DNA of 20,000 nucleotides from an uncultured virus (IMG/VR IMGVR_UViG_3300032030_000060) (Duplodnaviria; Heunggongvirae; Uroviricota; Caudoviricetes). Below, one piece after another: positions 3,206 to 14,074 of the stretch. The DNA is taken from the IMG/VR virus record IMGVR_UViG_3300032030_000060; one strand, written 5' to 3'. Positions within the stretch are counted from its first letter, which is position 1. Each line of letters starts with the position of its first letter. The notes beneath the pieces were generated by a model. That model did no database searches and had not been told where the DNA came from. It worked only from the letters and a program-made list of their open reading frames with translations. The position numbers and the translations under genes were made by a program.

Positions 3206-3402
3206 GAGAATCCAACACAAATTTCAAAAACATCATTCAAACGCTCTCTAATCGATTGTAAGCGCACCAGACTATAAAGTACCCACAAACACAAAGAAAA
3301 TGCGCCAAAACGCCTTAAAAACGCCTTAAAACGAATGCTATCACACAATACAACTAAACATAAACAATAAAAACACAAAAATCATAAATACACAAGACGA
3401 TT

Positions 3403-4120
3403 TACACACATACACGCACACGCACACGTGCGCACACACGTAATACGTCAAGACTATTTTACTCGTCAAGACTTAAACACTATAAACGAACGATTTTGAC
3501 GTAAACTAAAAAAAACAGTATACTGAAATAATAATATACTTAACGACTAAATATCTGATAACATAATACGTAAATTCTTAATCTATATCTATTTTTTTCT
3601 TCAAAATTTATTTTTTTTAATTTTAAAAATTTTCTCTAAATTATTTTTTTTCTGGAAATAGTATATGCACCAACGGACTTTCGGCGGCGGCGTTATCCCC
3701 CACCCGTGCGCCTTGCGGCAGCGAAAACGGCCAAAAACCGACAAAAACCGACAAATATTTGTCCGCATTGAACATTATGCAAAAATATTTCTGCAAATTA
3801 CATTATATCAATAAGTTACAAAGATTTTTGTGCTTTCCCTTGCATTATTCCATGTGAGACGAAAAATGAATAAAAATTGTATATTTAACCGCTCTAAAAT
3901 TTGTCTATTTTGGGCTATCTATATCTATAATTTATAGTCTTACTTCTTATCTTCTTATCTTATCTTCTTACTATTATACTATAATACTATAATATTATTA
4001 TACTATAGTACTATTATAATAGTGTTATATTATAGTAATACACTATAGTTTATGATTTACATTTACAAATTTACATATATAAATATTTAAGAAATTAAAT
4101 TACAAATGTAAATCTTTACA
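3403..4120. repeat. AT-rich low-complexity control region with short tandem repeats
   Basis: CA/CG alternating tract at 3403-3441; A/T tracts at 3590-3652; AAAAACCGAC x2 at ~3733-3752; TCTTA/TCTTCTTA repeats at 3938-3971; TACTATA repeats at 3977-4048. No credible ORF. Confidence 0.7.
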
Positions 4121-4152
4121 CGCATATAATAAGGTACGTGATACGAGAGGAA

Positions 4153-4318
4153 TGAGTGTAATTTATACACTTAAAAAACTGTACGTTTCAATGAGTGTGA
4201 TTTATACACTCAATCTGCGCAGATCTGCTTTAAGTGTATTGTTTATACTTAATCGGCGGTCTGTTTTTGGTGTAATAATTACACTTATTATTCGGTTTAT
4301 GCGTAATTTTAACGCATA
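4153..4318. repeat. Array of five 21-bp imperfect palindromes (operator/iteron-like)
   Basis: TGAGTGTA-ATTTA-TACACTTA (4153), TGAGTGTG-ATTTA-TACACTCA (4192), TAAGTGTA-TTGTT-TATACTTA (4231), TTGGTGTA-ATAAT-TACACTTA (4267), TATGCGTA-ATTTT-AACGCATA (4298). Confidence 0.85.
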
Positions 4319-4438
4319 AAATAAAATATGAGAAAACTCAAAAAAAATTTTTGTTTATAAGTCGCTGAAAATCAATGAGTTACAGAAAACTCAAGAAAAA
4401 AAATGCATAGTGTTAACAAATTGGATACACTTTTTTTA

Positions 4439-4470
4439 TTGTTGGTTAAAAAAATATTTCTATCTTTGCA
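4439..4470 (+). promoter_or_regulatory. Bacteroidota sigma-A promoter (probable strong early promoter)
   Basis: TATCTTTGCA at 4461-4470 matches the -7 consensus TAnnTTTG. TTG at 4439-4444 is at -33-like spacing. Confidence 0.75.
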
Positions 4471-4475
4471 TCAGA

Positions 4476-5520
4476 ATTCAAAACGGAGACGGTGGCCGTT
4501 TAAAAAACACCGAGCTAATTAGGCTATTTGCTCTTTGATTTAGTTAACATACGGCTGAATGTTGAAGGCTGCGGCTAGTGCTGGTTATTTCTCCTCATGT
4601 GTGGTTTTTGATTGAGGTCTGCCGCAGCGGTTGCTTTTACATTGGAACAAGTAAACGTCAAATCATTCAGCTCAGAAAAGTTTGGAACGCGCCAAGGAAT
4701 TGGAGCGGAGCAAATAAGCGAAAAATCAGATTTAACCCAATTTTGTATTTTGGCTGCTTTTTCAGTGTTTTGCGAGTTACTTTTCCGACAATTACTTTGA
4801 GTGAGGGCTGCGGAACGGCATTTGCCTATTAATTCCCAATTGCCGCAGTTAGTTTTCCGAGTGATATTTTATCCGTTATTTTAGCCGTTTGTTTGGCAGA
4901 GTAATTTAGTAGGAAGACGTTGAAAACTTGGGCACAAGTAAGAAAAAGGAAAACGGGAAGTAACAAACACTACACAATTTGCGAGTGAAGGACGTAATTA
5001 CCGAAAAAATAAGTTTTATGTTCTTTGCGTAGGCAAAGTACAGTCTGCGAAGATATAGCAGATATTGCCCGTTGAAAGTGCAGTTAGGTGACAGTTGACT
5101 GCGATACGGGAGAGTTATTGATAATTAGTATTTAGAGAAACAAGTAAGTACTAAAATCACATGTTTAATTAATTGTGGCGAATACTATCAGCAGAACAAA
5201 TAAAACACCAAGTTTTGCGCCTATCATTATAGGTATTGTTTTGGTGTTTTTGTTTTGTCGTTTTTGCGCCGTTTGCACAAGTTTATTACTTGGGCGCAAA
5301 TAACGAGCAAGGACTATCATTATAGTCGTACTATAGTATTTCAATACGGACAAAATAGGTAGTTTAATTAAAAGATTGCAATCTATCTGAAAATCTTATT
5401 GTGTGTATATTTGCGGCGGGGCTGCGAAGTTATTTAGATAGCCAATTTCTGCACACGAATTGGAGAAAAATAAGTATTCCCCTTCCCGCTTACTGCGGGC
5501 CGCAAATAACTAATTAGAGT
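4476..5520 (+). ncRNA. Candidate large (~1,040 nt) multi-domain structured RNA
   Basis: More than 15 nested helices found by eye, a 5' H-type pseudoknot, a closing helix 4515-4522/5510-5517, G-U pairs favouring the + strand, and no credible ORF. It starts just after the promoter. Confidence 0.7.
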
Positions 5521-5565
5521 TTATTTATATTATACAATTAACTAAAATTTATAGGAGACAGAATT

Positions 5566-6084
5566 ATGAAAACTGCAAATGTAAATGTTATCAATGAGTT
5601 ACGTAAAAAGGTAGCAAACCTTGAGCGTAAAACCTACTCCCTCAATCAAGCGGCCAAGGCTCTGTCAGGTATCGGCACCGACGCAGAGAAAGAAGTCCTC
5701 GGAGTCAAGACGTTTTCACTCGCTGAAATCAAGGCTGCGTGGAGTACCAAACTTATGATAGACGGCGAAATGGGACTGTACATGACGCAGCCCTACACTA
5801 TGCTCGTGGAGGAGAAAGAAGTCCGCCTGTTTGAGAGAACAGAAGGCAAGAAGGGCGTGTCGTTCAGGGCATTGAGTGTCCGCCGTCTGCAAAAACCCGA
5901 GAAGTGGACGCCTGCCATCATCCTCGAGGGCTTGGTGCAGAGCAGATTCCCCGACTTGGCTGCGGAGGAGGCGGCAGATACATTTAAGCATGTGAATGAC
6001 GTCGACGTCATGTACCGCAAGGTCACCAAGAAGGATGCAAACGGATTCATGTCGGTCACCTTCGAGGAGGTTGACGCAGAATAA
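5566..6084 (+). CDS. Hypothetical protein (first gene of the + strand early region)
   Basis: 172-aa ORF with AGGAGA and an A/T-rich leader, coding-like codon usage. Confidence 0.85.
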   Translation: MKTANVNVINELRKKVANLERKTYSLNQAAKALSGIGTDAEKEVLGVKTFSLAEIKAAWSTKLMIDGEMGLYMTQPYTMLVEEKEVRLFERTEGKKGVSFRALSVRRLQKPEKWTPAIILEGLVQSRFPDLAAEEAADTFKHVNDVDVMYRKVTKKDANGFMSVTFEEVDAE

Positions 6085-6105
6085 CCGCAAATGTACGCAA
6101 GCACG

Positions 6106-6134
6106 GGACCTGGGCACGTCGGTAAACTACCCAG
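6106..6134 (+). ncRNA. Small H-type pseudoknot motif, copy 1
   Basis: GAC-CTGGGCAC-GTC-GGTAAAC-TACCCAG. Stem 1 is GAC/GTC; loop CTGGG pairs with CCCAG. Confidence 0.55.
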
Positions 6135-6199
6135 CGGTAACTCCACCTACGCACATGCGTAGTCCGTAGGCCAAGTCGGGATAAAGGAGGAGGTCGGCT
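6133..6199 (+). ncRNA. Twister self-cleaving ribozyme (P1-closed type)
   Basis: P1 AGCGG/TCGGCT, conserved U^AA (6138-6140), P2 CTCC/GGAG, P3 CTACGC/GCGTAG, P4 TCCG/CGGG with loop ...CCAAGT, ATAAA linker and GAGG. Pseudoknots are CC/GG and AC(6145-46)/GT(6175-76), a compensatory version of the usual GC/GC. Confidence 0.85.
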
Positions 6200-6211
6200 C
6201 ACTATCACGCA

Positions 6212-6352
6212 GGCCGCCGTGTCTGTGCTGATGGGGTTTTCGTTTGGCGTGGTTTGCTCCACTGATAGAGCCAAACTGCGCATATCAAGTCCGCAGGCAG
6301 GTGTGCCGCCTTCGGGAGAAGGTGCGTCGGGTCGGGTCTGACGGCGGGCACA
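6212..6352 (+). ncRNA. Unidentified multi-stem structured RNA with tRNA-like 3' closure
   Basis: CCGCC 6214-6218/GGCGG 6343-6347; GTTTGGC/GCCAAAC; GTGG/CCAC; TGCG/CGCA; GCCTTC/GAAGGT; a 5-bp stem with 7-nt loop GTCGG-GTCGGGT-CTGAC. Confidence 0.45.
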
Positions 6353-6407
6353 AGTATTTATTCACTAAAGCAGCCGCAGCCGCTCACGTGTGGGGGTGCA
6401 AAGTAAC

Positions 6408-6656
6408 ATGAAATTAAAACTTAATTTTTGCTCCGAGGTGCAGTGCGCCAAGGAATTTGCAGAATTTATAAACTCATGCACATTCCAAAACTTAACTGGA
6501 GGGATAATGGTCCTCCAAGTTATTAAAAACAAAATTGCAGTTTATGGCTGCAATTTGGACTGTAGCATCACAAACAATGTGATGTATATTGACGGCGAGC
6601 CAGCCGTAGATTTCGATAAAAGAGAAATATTAATAGACTACGCTTTTGATGAGTAA
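6408..6656 (+). CDS. Hypothetical protein
   Basis: ATG at 6408 (MKLKLNF) within the listed 6390..6656 ORF. Confidence 0.7.
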   Translation: MKLKLNFCSEVQCAKEFAEFINSCTFQNLTGGIMVLQVIKNKIAVYGCNLDCSITNNVMYIDGEPAVDFDKREILIDYAFDE

Positions 6657-6660
6657 GTCA

Positions 6661-6687
6661 CGTCCCGAGCATGACGCAAAACTGCTC
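6661..6687 (+). ncRNA. Small H-type pseudoknot motif, copy 2
   Basis: CGTC-CCGAGCAT-GACG-CAAAAC-TGCTC. Stem 1 is CGTC/GACG; stem 2 is GAGCA/TGCTC. Confidence 0.6.
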
Positions 6688-6694
6688 ACTGCAT

Positions 6695-6765
6695 AGCCCA
6701 TTTGTGTAAAGGTAGCACGGCGCACTATGTGCGTAGGCGTGGGTTCGACTCCGACATGGGCTTCA
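6695..6765 (+). tRNA. tRNA-like RNA or degenerate tRNA with non-canonical 5-nt anticodon loop
   Basis: Acceptor AGCCCAT/ATGGGCT, D arm GTGT-AAAGGTA-GCAC, anticodon arm GCGCA-CTATG-TGCGT, T arm GTGGG-TTCGACT-CCGAC (one mismatch). No encoded CCA. Confidence 0.65.
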
Positions 6766-6794
6766 ACGTCTAAAAAATACAAAACAAAACAACA

Positions 6795-6920
6795 ATGAAA
6801 ACAAAAACAAAGGATTTAATCGAGGCTATGGCACATGTGCTCGGCCTCAATAAGAATGAACTTGCCGCAGGATATGCGGCATTTGTGAACGATTTCTTTG
6901 GCAAGGAGGTCGTCGCATGA
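6795..6920 (+). CDS. Small hypothetical protein (41 aa)
   Basis: MKTKTKDLIEAMAHVLGLNKNELAAGYAAFVNDFFGKEVVA*, preceded by a Bacteroidota-type A-rich leader. Confidence 0.6.
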   Translation: MKTKTKDLIEAMAHVLGLNKNELAAGYAAFVNDFFGKEVVA

Positions 6921-7023
6921 TACAAATAATCATCTTCGCATGGGCTTGCGCATCTATCGCAGGTCTGTGCGCACTTCGCGAAAACAATTAACATAAACAT
7001 AAACCAATAAAATTTCAACTATT

Positions 7024-8439
7024 ATGGCAACAATTAATTTCAAAAACGCAATAACGAATGAGACAATCAGCGTGGCTAACATCAAAAAAGTAGCCGACCG
7101 CGAGTATTTCTTCACCGTCCGCGACAAGGGCTGCGGAACAAAGTTCTTCAACCGCAACGTCTGCTTTGCCAATAACGGCGACACCAACTATGGCGGCAAG
7201 AATGGCACGTCGCTCATCCTCATCGAGGGCTGGGAGCCAGTTGACGAGCCGAAGGCACGCAAGCCACGCGCGCCAAAGGCCGCTGTCACCGCAGAACCGA
7301 CAGTCAGCGCACCCGTGACCGCAACGCTCACCGAGCCCGTTGTGACCGAGCCTATCGTGGCTGAGCCTGAGCCTATTCCCGCAGAACCCGTGGCAGAACC
7401 CGAACCAACAGTCGCAACCGCCGCCACCCTAATGGCGATGCTGAATGTCACAGCCAAAAATCTCTCAAAAAAATACGGCGAACTTGCTGGCGACATCATC
7501 AACGCAGTGACCGCAGCCGTTGTCAAGGTGTGCGAGACCACAGTCAACGCCGACGAGGTCAAAAAACTAATCGACGAGCGTGTGAAGGCTCTCTGTGGCA
7601 CGGTCACAACAATCGTCGTGAAGCAAGCATCTGGCGTATCTAAGACGCTCAAGGGCGTGTTCCACAAGTCATTCGACATCTTCTGTAATCTTGTTGGTGC
7701 TGACAAGCCGTTGTATTTCTACGGCCCTGCTGGGTGCGGAAAGTCGTACATGGCGAAGCAGATTGCCGACGCTCTTGGCCTCGACTATTACGAGACCTCG
7801 CAAGCCATGTTTGCCCACGACCTCAAGGGCTACGGCGATGCCAAGGGAGAGTATGTCGGCACGCCGTTCTATAAGGCTTTTAAGTTCGGCGGCCTCTTCT
7901 TCCTTGACGAAGTTGACGCATCAGCACCCGAGGCTTTGGTTGTGTTGAACAACGCTATCGCTAACAAGCGTTTTGATTTCCCAGTGATAGGCAATGTAGA
8001 TGCACATCCTAATTTCCGTGTGATTGCAGCAGGTAACACACGCATGACTGGTGCAACGTTGGCGTACACCGCAAGACAGTGTCAAGATACGAGTTTTAAG
8101 AACCGCTTCTTCTTCGAGTTGGTTGGCTACGACGAGCGCATAGAGTTGTCTATTGCCAACGGCGACAAGGAAATCGTGGAGTTCGCCCACGACATCCGCA
8201 AGGCCGCACGTGAGACCAACATCTTGCAGTTGTGTTCCTATCGGCAGATTAAGGACATGGCGACTCTGTTGCCATGTGTGAACGGCGACCCTTCCCACAT
8301 TGTGCGCGGTAGCGTGTTACAGGAAAAAGAGGTCGACGAGGCCAATATCCTCTACTCTCACCTTGCCCACAAGAGCAATCCTTGGGCAAAGGCAATGAAA
8401 GCCGAAATAGAGAATATGAAAAACGAGGAGGTGTGGTAA
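7024..8439 (+). CDS. MoxR/CbbQ/CobS-like AAA+ ATPase (dynein-related AAA_5 type) with N-terminal domain and Pro/Glu/Thr-rich linker
   Basis: Walker A GPAGCGKS, Walker B FFLDEVD, 'AHPNFRVIAAGNT' sensor region and 'DTSFKNRF' Arg finger. Confidence 0.9.
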   Translation: MATINFKNAITNETISVANIKKVADREYFFTVRDKGCGTKFFNRNVCFANNGDTNYGGKNGTSLILIEGWEPVDEPKARKPRAPKAAVTAEPTVSAPVTATLTEPVVTEPIVAEPEPIPAEPVAEPEPTVATAATLMAMLNVTAKNLSKKYGELAGDIINAVTAAVVKVCETTVNADEVKKLIDERVKALCGTVTTIVVKQASGVSKTLKGVFHKSFDIFCNLVGADKPLYFYGPAGCGKSYMAKQIADALGLDYYETSQAMFAHDLKGYGDAKGEYVGTPFYKAFKFGGLFFLDEVDASAPEALVVLNNAIANKRFDFPVIGNVDAHPNFRVIAAGNTRMTGATLAYTARQCQDTSFKNRFFFELVGYDERIELSIANGDKEIVEFAHDIRKAARETNILQLCSYRQIKDMATLLPCVNGDPSHIVRGSVLQEKEVDEANILYSHLAHKSNPWAKAMKAEIENMKNEEVW

Positions 8440-8460
8440 CACCCTCCTCTACTTCCTTTT
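8425..8460 (+). terminator. Hairpin overlapping the ATPase stop codon (terminator/attenuator-like)
   Basis: GAGGAGGTGT/ACACCCTCCTC stem followed by TACTTCCTTTT. Confidence 0.4.
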
Positions 8461-8496
8461 CGTTGAATACAATATACAATAAAATAATATTATATC

Positions 8497-9324
8497 ATGG
8501 CTGATTTTTTCAAAAGGTTCGAGAACGTGACATCTTTGGTCACGTATCTCGACGAGGCTCCCGTACAGCCCTACTTTTTGGGTTGTCAGTCCTCGAAATC
8601 CACAAGCAACCCGCATTTCTATGGGTACGACTCGTACGAAGATGCCCGCGAGAAGATGCTCAACGGCGACAAGGAACTTGCAAAAAAGTTGCGTGGTACG
8701 GCAAAGTTAGACATTAACGTTCCTGCCACCGCGACAAAAAAGCGCATGGTGACGCGAGTCGTGGGGTTCATGCCGCATGTGCCTAATTATTTGGCTGGTG
8801 TACCCAATAACATGGTTTGGGTCGAGGAGCAAAAAGTAACCGAGCCTGTTATTACAATCGTTTATAACATCGGTTGTTTAGGGTCTTCATCAAGCGACAC
8901 GGTCACTAAGGTTTCGGCACGCATCATGTCGGCAATCATGTCAGCGGAGCGAAAAGGTTATAGAATCAACCTTTACGTTGCATCCGCACAGACACAAGGG
9001 AAGCAGTGCTGTGGTCTTTTATGTAAAGTAAAAGATAGCGGGCAGCATATTGATACGCTAAAAATGGCCGTACCGATGATTTCTCCCGCTATGAATCGTC
9101 GATTCGGCTTCCGCTTCAGAGAGACAATGCCTGGACTATCGGAGGACTGGGTGTACGGATATGGAAGTTCAATGGGAACGTACGAATTTCAGTCGTTCCT
9201 CAATAGGCAGAACTTTAAATATGATATTGCTATCGCTTTCGAGAGCGTCAAGCATATAAAGACGCAAGATGAACTTGAAAAGATGTTCATCGACGCATCT
9301 AAAAAAATAAAGCAAAATCACTAA
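8497..9324 (+). CDS. Putative vWA-like (CobT/CoxE-type) partner of the AAA+ ATPase
   Basis: Adjacent to a MoxR-type ATPase. 'GFMPHVPNYLAGVP' is followed by a beta-alpha-beta pattern (ITIVYNIG..SARIMSAIMSAERKGYRINLYV). The MIDAS motif is degenerate. Confidence 0.6.
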   Translation: MADFFKRFENVTSLVTYLDEAPVQPYFLGCQSSKSTSNPHFYGYDSYEDAREKMLNGDKELAKKLRGTAKLDINVPATATKKRMVTRVVGFMPHVPNYLAGVPNNMVWVEEQKVTEPVITIVYNIGCLGSSSSDTVTKVSARIMSAIMSAERKGYRINLYVASAQTQGKQCCGLLCKVKDSGQHIDTLKMAVPMISPAMNRRFGFRFRETMPGLSEDWVYGYGSSMGTYEFQSFLNRQNFKYDIAIAFESVKHIKTQDELEKMFIDASKKIKQNH

Positions 9325-10864: not shown

Positions 10865-11215
10865 ATGAAAACGAAAGATTTTATCTGCTACGTGGTTTTA
10901 GGCATACAGCCTGACTTTATCGACAACCTTTGCGACGAGTTCGACGTAGACTTTTCGTATGACGACATCAAAGAAATACTCGACATGTGTTCGGGTGGCT
11001 TCCAAAAAGAAGACCATTACAACAGTGTAGGCAATGAGATTATACGCCACATCTACGGCCAAATCATCGCCTACCACAACGACGTTCTGGACGAAAACAA
11101 GTTTGATTATATACTTGACGGAAGATGCAGCCGCCTGTACTACGACGGAGAAACAATTTACTCTAAGCAGGACATTGAGAACTTAGAGGAACAGCACGAA
11201 CTTGAGACAAAGTAA
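10865..11215 (+). CDS. Hypothetical acidic protein
   Basis: 116-aa D/E-rich ORF. Confidence 0.8.
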   Translation: MKTKDFICYVVLGIQPDFIDNLCDEFDVDFSYDDIKEILDMCSGGFQKEDHYNSVGNEIIRHIYGQIIAYHNDVLDENKFDYILDGRCSRLYYDGETIYSKQDIENLEEQHELETK

Positions 11216-12006: not shown

Positions 12007-12162
12007 ATGAAGACATACTTTATCTACACATCAGCAAGCGGCGAGGAACACCGTATCGACGTTGAAAAATTCATGCAAGAATACGCCTACAATGACATCG
12101 TGCATTGTAAACGCAACCTCATGGGATGGATTGGAACTAACAAACATTTTGAATATGAATAA
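12007..12162 (+). CDS. Small hypothetical protein (51 aa)
   Basis: MKTYFIYTSASGEEHRIDVEKFMQEYAYNDIVHCKRNLMGWIGTNKHFEYE*; fills the gap and overlaps the next start. Confidence 0.6.
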   Translation: MKTYFIYTSASGEEHRIDVEKFMQEYAYNDIVHCKRNLMGWIGTNKHFEYE

Positions 12163-12949
12163 ATATGCTACTTACATTCGAGTCTCTACGGCCAAACAAG
12201 GTCGTAGCGGATTAGGACTGGAATCACAACAAAAGATATGCGGCGATTTTATTGCCGCTCAAGGCGGGACGAAAATCGCCGAATTTAAAGACGTCGAGTC
12301 TGGCACACATCGTGACAGACGAGGACTCATTGCGGCGATAGAGTTCTGCAAGACCAACAAATGCGGATTGGTCATCGCTAAACTTGACCGTCTTGCAAGA
12401 GATGTCGAATTTTGTTTCCGTGTTGTTAACACGGGCATCGATATTCATTTCTGCGACATGCCAACAATTAACACATTGTTGTTAGGCGTTTTCGCAGCCG
12501 TGGCGCAATACGAAAGAGAACTTACAAGTGATAGAACGAAAAAGGCACTTGCTGCCAAGAAAGCACGTGGTGAAAAACTTGGTGGTGCTTCGCTCGGATG
12601 GCAAGTATCATACAAACTTAAAACAAAAGAAGAAAAACAAAACGAATCTATGGAAAGAGGTAAAATGAAGCGGTCTCGACATCAGACATCAAGAGACACG
12701 CAAGCATTTATTAGGGTACTCAAAAGAGTGTTCCCTAATGCCACATTGGGCGACGACCCCTCAAAATGGCTATGGAATCAAATTTGTTGTAAACAGCCAA
12801 AAAGAGACGAGATACTCTCTATCATGGCTGATTACCAAAATATTGATTCAACGTTATTCCCAAATTGGGATTTCAAGCTATCAACAGAAAAGAATGCGCA
12901 GAAACTGCGCTCTTATATGCAAGCGTTCAAAAAATCATTTATTAACTAA
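12155..12949 (+). CDS. Serine recombinase (resolvase/invertase family)
   Basis: Start MNKYATYIRVST with catalytic YxRVS. Also 'DVESG', 'LVIAKLDRLAR' and 'AVAQYERELTSDRTKKALAAKKARGEKLG'. Confidence 0.92.
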   Translation: MNKYATYIRVSTAKQGRSGLGLESQQKICGDFIAAQGGTKIAEFKDVESGTHRDRRGLIAAIEFCKTNKCGLVIAKLDRLARDVEFCFRVVNTGIDIHFCDMPTINTLLLGVFAAVAQYERELTSDRTKKALAAKKARGEKLGGASLGWQVSYKLKTKEEKQNESMERGKMKRSRHQTSRDTQAFIRVLKRVFPNATLGDDPSKWLWNQICCKQPKRDEILSIMADYQNIDSTLFPNWDFKLSTEKNAQKLRSYMQAFKKSFIN

Positions 12950-13831: not shown

Positions 13832-14074
13832 TGTTATGACGAACATCGGATTAAAGTACTTATCTACAGTTTCTTCCGAATTGCGTGAAATAAAAGAACA
13901 GTTAGAAAAACCAACGATACCTTGGTGCTTATTGCCAAGGTTATGAACGAGCGCAAATAACGTGTTTTTTAAGCACGCTACGGCACTTTGCTACACTTTG
14001 TGGGATAACCTACCCACCAGTAGTTACAAAACCGCTTAAAACGTTTAAAAAATAACTAAAGAATAAGAGGAATC

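Follow-up and report, generated by a model that had tools for sequence, protein, structure and literature searches.

A putative 5′ pseudoknot at the head of a long early leader in a small clade of gut and rumen phages

What fills the kilobase of gene-free DNA that lies between an early promoter of a phage and the first gene behind it? We address this question for positions 4476-5520 of a 20,000-nt stretch of DNA (here called the window) from an uncultured virus of the Caudoviricetes, IMG/VR record IMGVR_UViG_3300032030_000060. A sequence-only reading had proposed that the whole interval is a single structured non-coding RNA (ncRNA) of about 1 kb, with domains A to E bracketed by a long-range closing helix. 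One ornate ncRNA of this size is not supported by our analysis. What survives of the proposal is an RNA-level element at the 5′ end that belongs to no Rfam family; what falls is the single fold of about 1 kb and the idea of a conserved body. The explanation we favor, with slightly better than even confidence, is that 4476-5520 is the long untranslated leader of an early operon, headed by a new cis-acting 5′ pseudoknot and continuing with terminator-like hairpins and DNA-level sites.

The interval is indeed free of credible genes, being non-coding under four genetic codes. Its longest open reading frames (ORFs) are 84 aa (GTG start, 4578-4832, with no Pfam family) and 62 aa. Reading TAG as Q, or using code 4, opened no longer frame within 4476-5520, and reading TAA as Q gave only frames requiring 2-6 read-through stops. 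The claim of a promoter box before the interval also holds: the interval lies directly behind a box that is conserved in related phages.

4461-4470, + strand: Bacteroidota-type -7 box TATCTTTG(CA) of the rightward early operon, the box proper being 4461-4468.

We take TAnnTTTG to be the consensus of the -7 box of the Bacteroidota sigma-A promoter. Only two + strand matches to it occur between 3300 and 5700 (4461-4468 and 5406-5413), and a TAnnTTTGC box stands at the equivalent place in eight related loci (L001, L002, L003, L007, L038, L057, L085 and L137). With this consensus and conservation, the box at 4461 is a putative sigma-A promoter, assigned from sequence. Related loci were sought in viral and metagenome contigs with the AAA_5 protein of the window (7024-8439) as the anchor. 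Relatives of this protein at 54-70% identity were found in L001, L002 (identical to L005), L003, L004, L007 and L038, and distant ones in L039 and L040; genome contigs yielded none.

Beyond the promoter, the only sequence common to the window, L002 and L003 is a run of about 40 nt directly behind it. L057, L085 and L137 joined these through two pattern scans of viral contigs, giving a set of six phages (alignment A7).

4481-4512, + strand: conserved 5′ element of 32 nt heading the predicted transcript, interpreted as an H-type pseudoknot.

All six sequences consist of AAACGG, 1-3 nt, a 5-nt arm, G, CCGTTT, (A/C)AAAAA and a complementary 5-nt arm, and in 6/6 phages the element starts 9-28 nt after the final G of the TAnnTTTG box. 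Stem 1 of the window pairs 4481-4486 with 4496-4501 (6 bp) and stem 2 pairs 4490-4494 with 4508-4512 (5 bp). This leaves a loop 1 of 3 nt, a loop 2 of 1 nt and the loop 3 AAAAAA (4502-4507). Across the six sequences, the loops measure 1-3, 1 and 6 nt, respectively, lengths that fit a compact H-type pseudoknot.

It is stem 2 that varies, occurring as CGGTG/CACCG, GGACG/CGTCC, GGACA/TGTTC, GGGTG/TACCC and, twice, TGAGG/CCTCA. Both sides have changed at four of the five pairs, and 29 of the 30 cells in the alignment are paired; the single unpaired cell is an effect of alignment register, caused by the 2-nt longer loop 1 of the window. The covariation score of stem 2 is 0.424, compared with 0.187 for shuffles (reached by 0 of 500), and falls to at most 0.079 when the partners are slid by 1-3 columns. 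Stem 1 is invariant across the six (6/6 pairs). The two stems have similar stabilities (-5 kcal/mol for stem 1, -3 to -7.5 kcal/mol for stem 2), and we infer that they form together as a pseudoknot, in which stem 2 has the backing of covariation and stem 1 of complementarity only. A conserved, covarying 5′ element, read as a pseudoknot, at the head of long early leaders in a small clade of gut and rumen phages is the solid new result of this work.

Several observations weigh against this reading of the element. An invariant stem 1 leaves a pseudoknot indistinguishable from a hairpin made of stem 2 and a conserved loop of 13 nt, and an ensemble restricted to nested structures gives stem 1 a pair probability of 0.05 and stem 2 one of 0.74. 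The comparison comprises six sequences only, with five distinct variants of stem 2, all from one narrow clade. The element is absent from the long leaders of two relatives, L038 (0.83 kb) and L007 (0.58 kb), and is thus not required for a long leader; L001 lacks both.

How specific is the element to these phages? The pattern of stem 1 plus the A-run has 78 distinct matches, 77 in viral contigs and one in the window, of which eight have all five stem-2 pairs in register. A TAnnTTTG box lies within 40 nt upstream in six of these eight and in no other of the 78. Among prokaryotes (one genome for each of 185,579 species), the same pattern has 76 matches, none with 5/5 stem-2 pairs. A covariance model built from the six sequences (R1) scores the window element at 48.5 bits (E 7e-09) as its sole convincing match in the window; it finds one copy per phage record and none in the records of L001 and L038. 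Weak matches, of 11 bits at 14027-14057 of the window and of 17.8 bits in the L002 record, were considered as second copies and rejected on inspection. No Rfam model matches the element above chance level in a search of 4400-5620 at E <= 10. Literature searches on Bacteroides phage pseudoknots and antitermination and on rumen phage ncRNA gave no such element, which is no proof of its absence in print.

Two further interpretations of the element were tried and set aside. A switch, in which the 3′ arm of stem 2 would pair with a downstream GGACG, is possible in L002 and L057 and fails in L003, L085 and the window, which removes it as a general mechanism. Two observations make a dimeric DNA operator improbable: the stem-1 arms are separated by 9 nt in the window and by 7 nt in each of the five other phages, and the letters of this spacer covary with those that lie 6 nt past the second arm. 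The comparisons point to an element that is phage-specific, acts at the level of RNA or at least of a single strand, and is tied to the first bases of the early transcript.

We then ask what lies behind the element. A long ORF-free stretch separates the promoter box from the first gene in seven of the eight phages examined, the exception being L001, with a leader of only 85 nt.

Leader length from box to first ATG: window 1.1 kb, L057 1.0 kb, L002 0.92 kb, L038 0.83 kb, L085 0.75 kb, L003 0.70 kb, L007 0.58 kb.

That 0.6-1.1 kb of non-coding DNA is kept here in seven of eight phages speaks for an account close to the original proposal, in which the whole of 4476-5520 is one large multi-domain ncRNA (scaffold, sponge or decoy) that is made first and evolves too fast to be recognized in relatives. 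Its non-coding nature, its place behind a conserved early promoter and its lack of an Rfam family speak for the same account, which we nonetheless consider very unlikely. The leader body of the window cannot be aligned with that of any relative examined, so that there is no homology of the body from which covariation could be read. Relatives whose flanking proteins are 38-70% identical share with the window only the promoter and the first ~40-45 nt, and the closest, L038 (70% in the AAA protein), has in common only two short AT-rich stretches upstream of the promoter. The body has no match in 50,697 phage records, and no viral contig contains an exact copy of a 27-nt word from domain A. The collection of homologues proposed along with the single-RNA idea thus found none for the leader body, and hence gave no alignment of the claimed helices.

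Searches for known RNAs were likewise negative, as the sequence-only reading had expected for transfer-messenger RNA (tmRNA): neither a transfer RNA (tRNA) nor a tmRNA was found in the window. Rfam gave no match at the gathering score in the whole window, and at E <= 10 on 4400-5620 six matches at chance level only, the best with 18.6 bits against a gathering score of 54. The leaders of the relatives matched no Rfam family. This search was validated on related material, where it recovered ROOL in L040 at 208 bits. The ROOL RNA is a bona fide one (RF03087, E 8e-46) at L040:11157-11771, beside a tRNA at 11072-11143; L040 is a 120-kb viral contig with a distant (43%) AAA_5 relative, and its ROOL is not at the early-leader position. 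Comparison of 4400-5600 with itself gave nothing below E 0.03, so the domains are not repeats of one unit.

The helices listed for the single RNA do exist as complementary segments. All 13 with equal arms are complementary, ten of them by perfect Watson-Crick pairing and three (B3, B4 and D3) with one G-T each; a 14th, B2, has bulged arms of 12 and 11 nt and lay outside this scoring. In the ensemble of 4476-5565, the mean pair probability is 0.89-0.99 for A2, A3, B4, C2, D2, D3, D4 and E1, and such high values for most of the listed helices favor a large RNA. The values are lower for the closing helix (0.60), A1 (0.57) and B1 (0.49), and B3 and D1 are missing from the ensemble (about 0). The closing helix, moreover, consists of a self-complementary 8-mer, CTAATTAG, of which the window has just the two copies at 4515 and 5510; two copies of so AT-rich an 8-mer per 20 kb are by our estimate not unusual in themselves.

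Whether the interval folds better than its composition would predict was examined with 40 dinucleotide shuffles per strand for the whole stretch and 100 shuffles for each part, the parts being cut at the domain borders of the earlier reading. On the + strand, the minimum free energy (MFE) of the whole stretch is -292.4, compared with -262.3 +/- 8.2 for shuffles (z -3.7), the figure most favorable to a large RNA; on the minus strand it is -238.2 compared with -212.7 +/- 8.4 (z -3.0), which is nearly as good. The parts behave as follows.

4515-4975, + strand: 5′ half of the leader body (domains A and B), G+U-rich, without fold excess; z -0.28 on + and -1.26 on minus.
4972-5163, + strand: domain C, four local hairpins; z -4.3 on + and -2.2 on minus.
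5164-5372, either strand: domain D, clustered palindromic hairpins that are nearly perfect and no less stable on one strand than on the other; z -5.3 on + and -5.9 on minus.
5408-5508, + strand: domain E, a 10-bp closing helix (5408-5417/5499-5508, pair probability 0.89) around two inner hairpins; z -2.9 on + and -2.35 on minus.

The expected advantage over shuffles therefore holds for the whole stretch and for 4972-5520 and fails for domains A and B, which are at chance. The fold excess is confined to 4972-5520. Counts of perfect inverted 8-mers within 250 nt show the same division: A and B contain 4, with 2.4 expected (reached by 75 of 300 shuffles), and C to E contain 13, with 3.1 expected (reached by 1 of 300). 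Domains C to E thus have a true excess of dyad symmetry. What domains A and B show, any 460 nt of such composition would offer to a hunter of 8-mers, and the same is probably true of the closing helix. With A, B and the long-range closing helix failing to surpass shuffled sequence, a single multi-domain fold of about 1 kb is not borne out, and the 460 nt at chance, with no excess of inverted repeats, count against one large ncRNA.

The argument for selection on the + strand fares no better. It rested on the many G-T positions in the helices, and these follow from composition: the + strand is G+T-rich (GC skew +0.14 to +0.25), and its MFE structures contain 21 G-U pairs against 5 on the minus strand in C to E, and 15 against 4 in A and B. 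Because shuffled + strands share this advantage, the argument does not discriminate. Nor are the z-scores strand-specific as a whole, being similar on both strands and stronger on the minus strand in D. As a control, region 4001-4400 upstream of the promoter, for which no RNA has been proposed, gives fold z-scores of -3.2 to -5.8 on both strands from its DNA palindromes alone. The leaders of the relatives can be cited on either side: that of L007 (z -3.55 on + and -1.64 on minus) favors a large RNA, and that of L038 (z just -1.8 and -1.7) does not.

The equal signal on both strands in D is a point for another explanation, in which the 3′ half of the interval (4972-5520), and chiefly D, is a DNA-level element. 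It would supply extra sites for a protein recognizing a repeat array upstream of the promoter, or other operators; the protein would be a replication initiator or early regulator, and the hairpins by-products of dyad-symmetric sites. We regard this as doubtful when taken as the explanation of the locus. It covers part of the interval only and is compatible with the leader headed by a pseudoknot. The array in question is the following.

3961-4045, no strand assigned: AT-rich array of TACTATAA-like repeats, at least 7 copies with an 8-nt period, iteron-like, upstream of the promoter.

Two copies of CTATCATTATAG in domain D (5221 and 5314) and the palindrome TACTATAGTA (5329-5338) echo motifs of this array. 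The 8-mer core of TACTATAGTA, TACTATAG, is found in the 20 kb only at 4001, in the array, and at 5329, and the 28-nt stretch 5319-5346 is 82% complementary to 3993-4020. The density of ACTAT peaks at 3501-4500 and again at 5001-5500. Perfect palindromes without spacers are also present (TACTATAGTA, GATTGCAATC, TTTAATTAAA and CTAATTAG), L038 has ACTATCATTA in its repeat array, L057 has ATCATTATAG in its leader, and the leaders of L002 and L038 have GTTTCACGTGAAAC palindromes in common. The motifs shared with the array point to putative DNA-level sites in D. Set against these similarities is the greater stability of the + strand in C (-4.3 vs -2.2) and in D and E together (-5.5 vs -3.5). The flanking pairs of the two CTATCATTATAG hairpins differ (CC/GG vs GA/TC), as would be expected of an RNA or single-strand hairpin.

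The GTTTCACGTGAAAC palindrome is a perfect one of 14 bp with a CACGTG core, at L002:4340-4375 and 4567-4602 and L038:5189-5224. It is also present in L002 as two tandem near-copies. It probably binds a protein.

The closest pair, L002 and L057, gives a different view of such sequences. Blocks of 100-175 nt in their leaders, including an internal TAnnTTTG box, are 84-94% identical, and the adjacent gene is 74% identical and 53% at third codon positions. Because the blocks are so much more similar than the third codon positions, such leaders appear to carry functional non-coding blocks in places; this purifying selection is a further point for a large leader RNA. It also bears on the possibility that the interval is an array of separate small RNA (sRNA) transcription units, each with its own promoter and terminator, which seems to us highly improbable. 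At L002:4160-4325 and L057:1990-2150, an internal TAnnTTTG box is followed by a block of ~140 nt, 86-94% identical, in which hairpins occur and one or more pairs changed in a compensatory way (by our reading of the alignment, A-T to G-C within a stem of CATGTA type), making it a candidate small RNA within the leader. The core of the -7 box, CTTTGCA, occurs 7 times on the + strand of the L002, L003 and L038 leaders, where 0.4 are expected, and never on the minus strand. The leader of the window lacks CTTTGCA and has no sRNA match in Rfam. What it offers to such an array is terminator-like hairpins at ~4631, 4860 and 5258 and a single internal match to TAnnTTTG.

5406-5413, + strand: second TAnnTTTG box, TATATTTG, 160 nt before the first gene and overlapping the 5′ arm of the closing helix of domain E.

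A hairpin ~60 nt upstream of the first gene is common to L002 (4650-4690), L003 (4740-4780) and L057 (2425-2460), and nothing similar was found in the window. Its 7-bp stem shows one compensatory pair, its conserved loop of 17 nt contains TTTTCGCGACTTTT, and the GACCT that flanks it on the 5′ side is the complement of part of GGAGGTC, the Shine-Dalgarno region.

The body of the window's leader contains some features of its own. In domains A and B, U-rich runs follow each of two GC-rich hairpins of the form GCTGCGG...CCGCAG, at about 4568-4640 and 4807-4860. Domain C is the sole part with a clearly greater excess stability on the + strand, and its first hairpin has a 13-bp stem that includes four G-U pairs (counted by hand from sequence and structure). 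In D, a long hairpin (5190-5258) followed by UCGUUUUU looks like a terminator. A loose scan for + strand hairpins with U-rich tails gave sites at ~4631 (dG -22.9), 4849-4865 (dG -10.7 to -20.7) and 5258 (dG -22.0). Separately, CTGCG occurs 6 times and GGCTGC 4 times on the + strand of 4476-5520, and CTGCG occurs 9 times across five leaders, with 2.2 expected. The 12-mer GCGCAAATAACG, in the 3′ arm of helix D4 (5292-5305), recurs at about 13952 (13950-13965), shortly upstream of a CTTTGC promoter-like box near 13985.

How might a leader of this kind work? In the explanation that we favor, an untranslated leader headed by a pseudoknot, transcription would start a few bases after the -7 box at 4461-4468, judging by the promoter consensus, and the first 32-40 nt of the RNA would fold into a compact H-type pseudoknot. 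The element would be a cis-acting 5′ module that decides whether the long leader transcript, free of ribosomes, persists and is carried on into the early genes. Of the possible modes, we tentatively prefer a put-like effect on the elongating polymerase, leading to read-through of the terminator-like hairpins at ~4631, 4860 and 5258. This would make the invariant stem 1 and the A-run a recognition surface, and it would fit the position of the element in the nascent RNA. Somewhat less probable within this explanation, and about equal to each other, are protection of the 5′ end against end-dependent decay, which we would place next, and a switch that binds a protein or ligand. The rest of the leader would consist of ~460 nt without detectable structural constraint and then of the hairpins of 4972-5520, partly DNA-level sites, possibly with a second promoter at 5406.

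The body of the leader fits this picture imperfectly. The terminator-like hairpins have long loops or internal branches, and a scan for consensus terminators gives one weak + strand site in the leader only, at 5410-5428; the looser scan favors the + strand merely through the U-richness of that strand. The box at 5406 could be the true promoter of the first gene, which would leave 4476 to ~5260 as a separate RNA. Domains C and E beat shuffles, C more so on the + strand, and some RNA structure in the body is possible.

A related idea, which we consider unlikely, is that the clade makes a fast-evolving ncRNA of 0.6-1.1 kb at the start of infection, with the pseudoknot as a 'handle' in most members and a body that acts, for instance, as a decoy or sponge for a factor of host defence or RNA binding. 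The handle would secure synthesis or stability of the ncRNA, and the host factor would itself vary between hosts. If true, this would define a new class of phage long ncRNA by its position and 5′ module, not by its fold.

Early transcription control in the Bacteroidota phages of gut and rumen is essentially unstudied, and the element may reveal factor-independent processivity of the polymerase, or stabilization of long untranslated RNA, in the Bacteroidota. The locus is also a caution against over-reading, in that hand-picked nested 8-mers in 1 kb of AT-rich DNA look ornate when half of them equal what shuffled sequence provides.

The window is phage-like and encodes the C-terminus of a tail tape-measure protein, an AAA_5 ATPase with a DUF7192 partner and, at 12062-12949 amid early/middle genes, a serine recombinase (Resolvase N-terminal domain, E 4e-24; PHROG DNA invertase); most other ORFs were assigned no Pfam or PHROG family. 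A 2.2-kb gene-less gap, 3378-5566, separates a leftward from a rightward gene arm and contains, in order, the repeat array (3961-4045), palindromes (4151-4289), the -7 box (4461), the interval 4476-5520 and the gene at 5566.

4151-4289, no strand assigned: imperfect palindromes of the GTGTAA-N-TTACAC / GTGTAATTTATACAC type, 3 or 4 copies, operator-like, 170-310 nt upstream of the early promoter.
5566-6084, + strand: first rightward gene, 172 aa, with AGGAG upstream at 5553-5557.

The array is the most AT-rich part of the window (GC 0.23-0.25), and the minimum of the cumulative GC skew (-2.32, at 3801-4200) coincides with it and with the divergence of the gene arms, which makes it a candidate for a replication origin or for a regulator array. 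In L001, L002 and L038, similar arrays of AT-rich repeats precede the early promoter. The AAA_5 gene of L038 (6010-7387) is split into overlapping frames, 6010-6831 and 6668-7387, through a frameshift or an assembly error.

A Shine-Dalgarno sequence is absent before most genes of the window, which together with the TAnnTTTG box fits a host in the Bacteroidota. A scan for sigma-70 promoters and terminators stayed at background level (12 vs 10.9 and 4 vs 3.5). Among public runs, the best source of the window's DNA is a sheep-gut metagenome. Two sheep-gut metatranscriptome runs contain 0.24 and 0.14 of the sampled words of 3300-8500, shares that cannot be localized and have no bearing on transcription of the leader.

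The first rightward gene is homologous to the first gene behind the leader of L002 (38% identity, E 1e-30); a search of viral contigs found no relative, and its product has no Pfam or PHROG family. An AlphaFold2 model of the product (pLDDT 89) gave a best E of 0.04 with Foldseek against the PDB, with scattered weak rows for single-strand-binding (SSB) and OB-fold proteins at a probability of ~0.1, and a best Z of 3.1 in a wide VIA-align search; no fold was assigned. Autoregulation like that of gene 32, by a single-strand-binding product, is unsupported with a product that has no recognizable fold.

How does the locus compare with known systems? GOLLD, ROOL and other ornate RNAs are long, non-coding, often phage-borne and of rumen origin, according to a preprint (bioRxiv 10.1101/2024.12.08.627333). 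The long non-coding stretch in a phage, and the true ROOL in the contig of a distant relative, recall these RNAs. The window, however, matches neither GOLLD nor ROOL, and none of the ornate RNA families in Rfam (GOLLD, ROOL, OLE, HEARO, raiA and others) was found in it at the gathering score; half of the interval is without fold excess, and no multi-stem core is common to the relatives.

In size and topology, the element is closer to the small riboswitches preQ1-I (RF00522), SAM-II and preQ1-II, which share with it a length of ~32-36 nt, the H-type topology and very short loops 1 and 2. As in preQ1-I, the A-rich loop 3 could lie in the minor groove of stem 1. The element differs from preQ1-I in that its covarying stem is stem 2, not stem 1, and in having neither an adjacent expression platform nor a queuosine-related gene; RF00522 has no match at E <= 10 in 4400-5620.

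The pseudoknot in the gene 32 leader of phages T4 and T2 resembles the element in being compact and H-type with a one-nt loop 1, in standing at the 5′ terminus of the leader of a phage mRNA and in having little structure after it. In T4, it lies tens of nt from the start codon, where it nucleates binding of the gene's own single-strand-binding product. The present element differs in lying 0.7-1.1 kb from the first gene, whose product is without a recognizable fold.

In the presumed host phylum, capsule operons of Bacteroides carry UpxY/ops sites with pause hairpins in their leaders, which recruit factors for processive elongation and are read through non-template DNA and upstream duplex DNA by an operon-encoded NusG paralogue (PMC11685472). 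The likeness lies in signals within the transcribed leader just after the promoter, including hairpins in the nascent RNA. A difference is that no NusG/KOW family was found among the 38 window ORFs scanned against Pfam.

In HK022, one of the lambdoid phages of E. coli, the put element comprises two stem-loops that together span about 70 nt. The element of the window is instead a putative single pseudoknot of ~32 nt, in phages with Bacteroidota-type promoters, so that in structure it is no put-type pair of stem-loops, and the terminators downstream of it are look-alikes. Its place is nevertheless that of put, in the nascent transcript just downstream of an early promoter. As a putative cis-acting RNA element it would share with put its occurrence once per early transcript and the terminator-like structures that follow, and its sequence-invariant parts would fit direct recognition by the polymerase.

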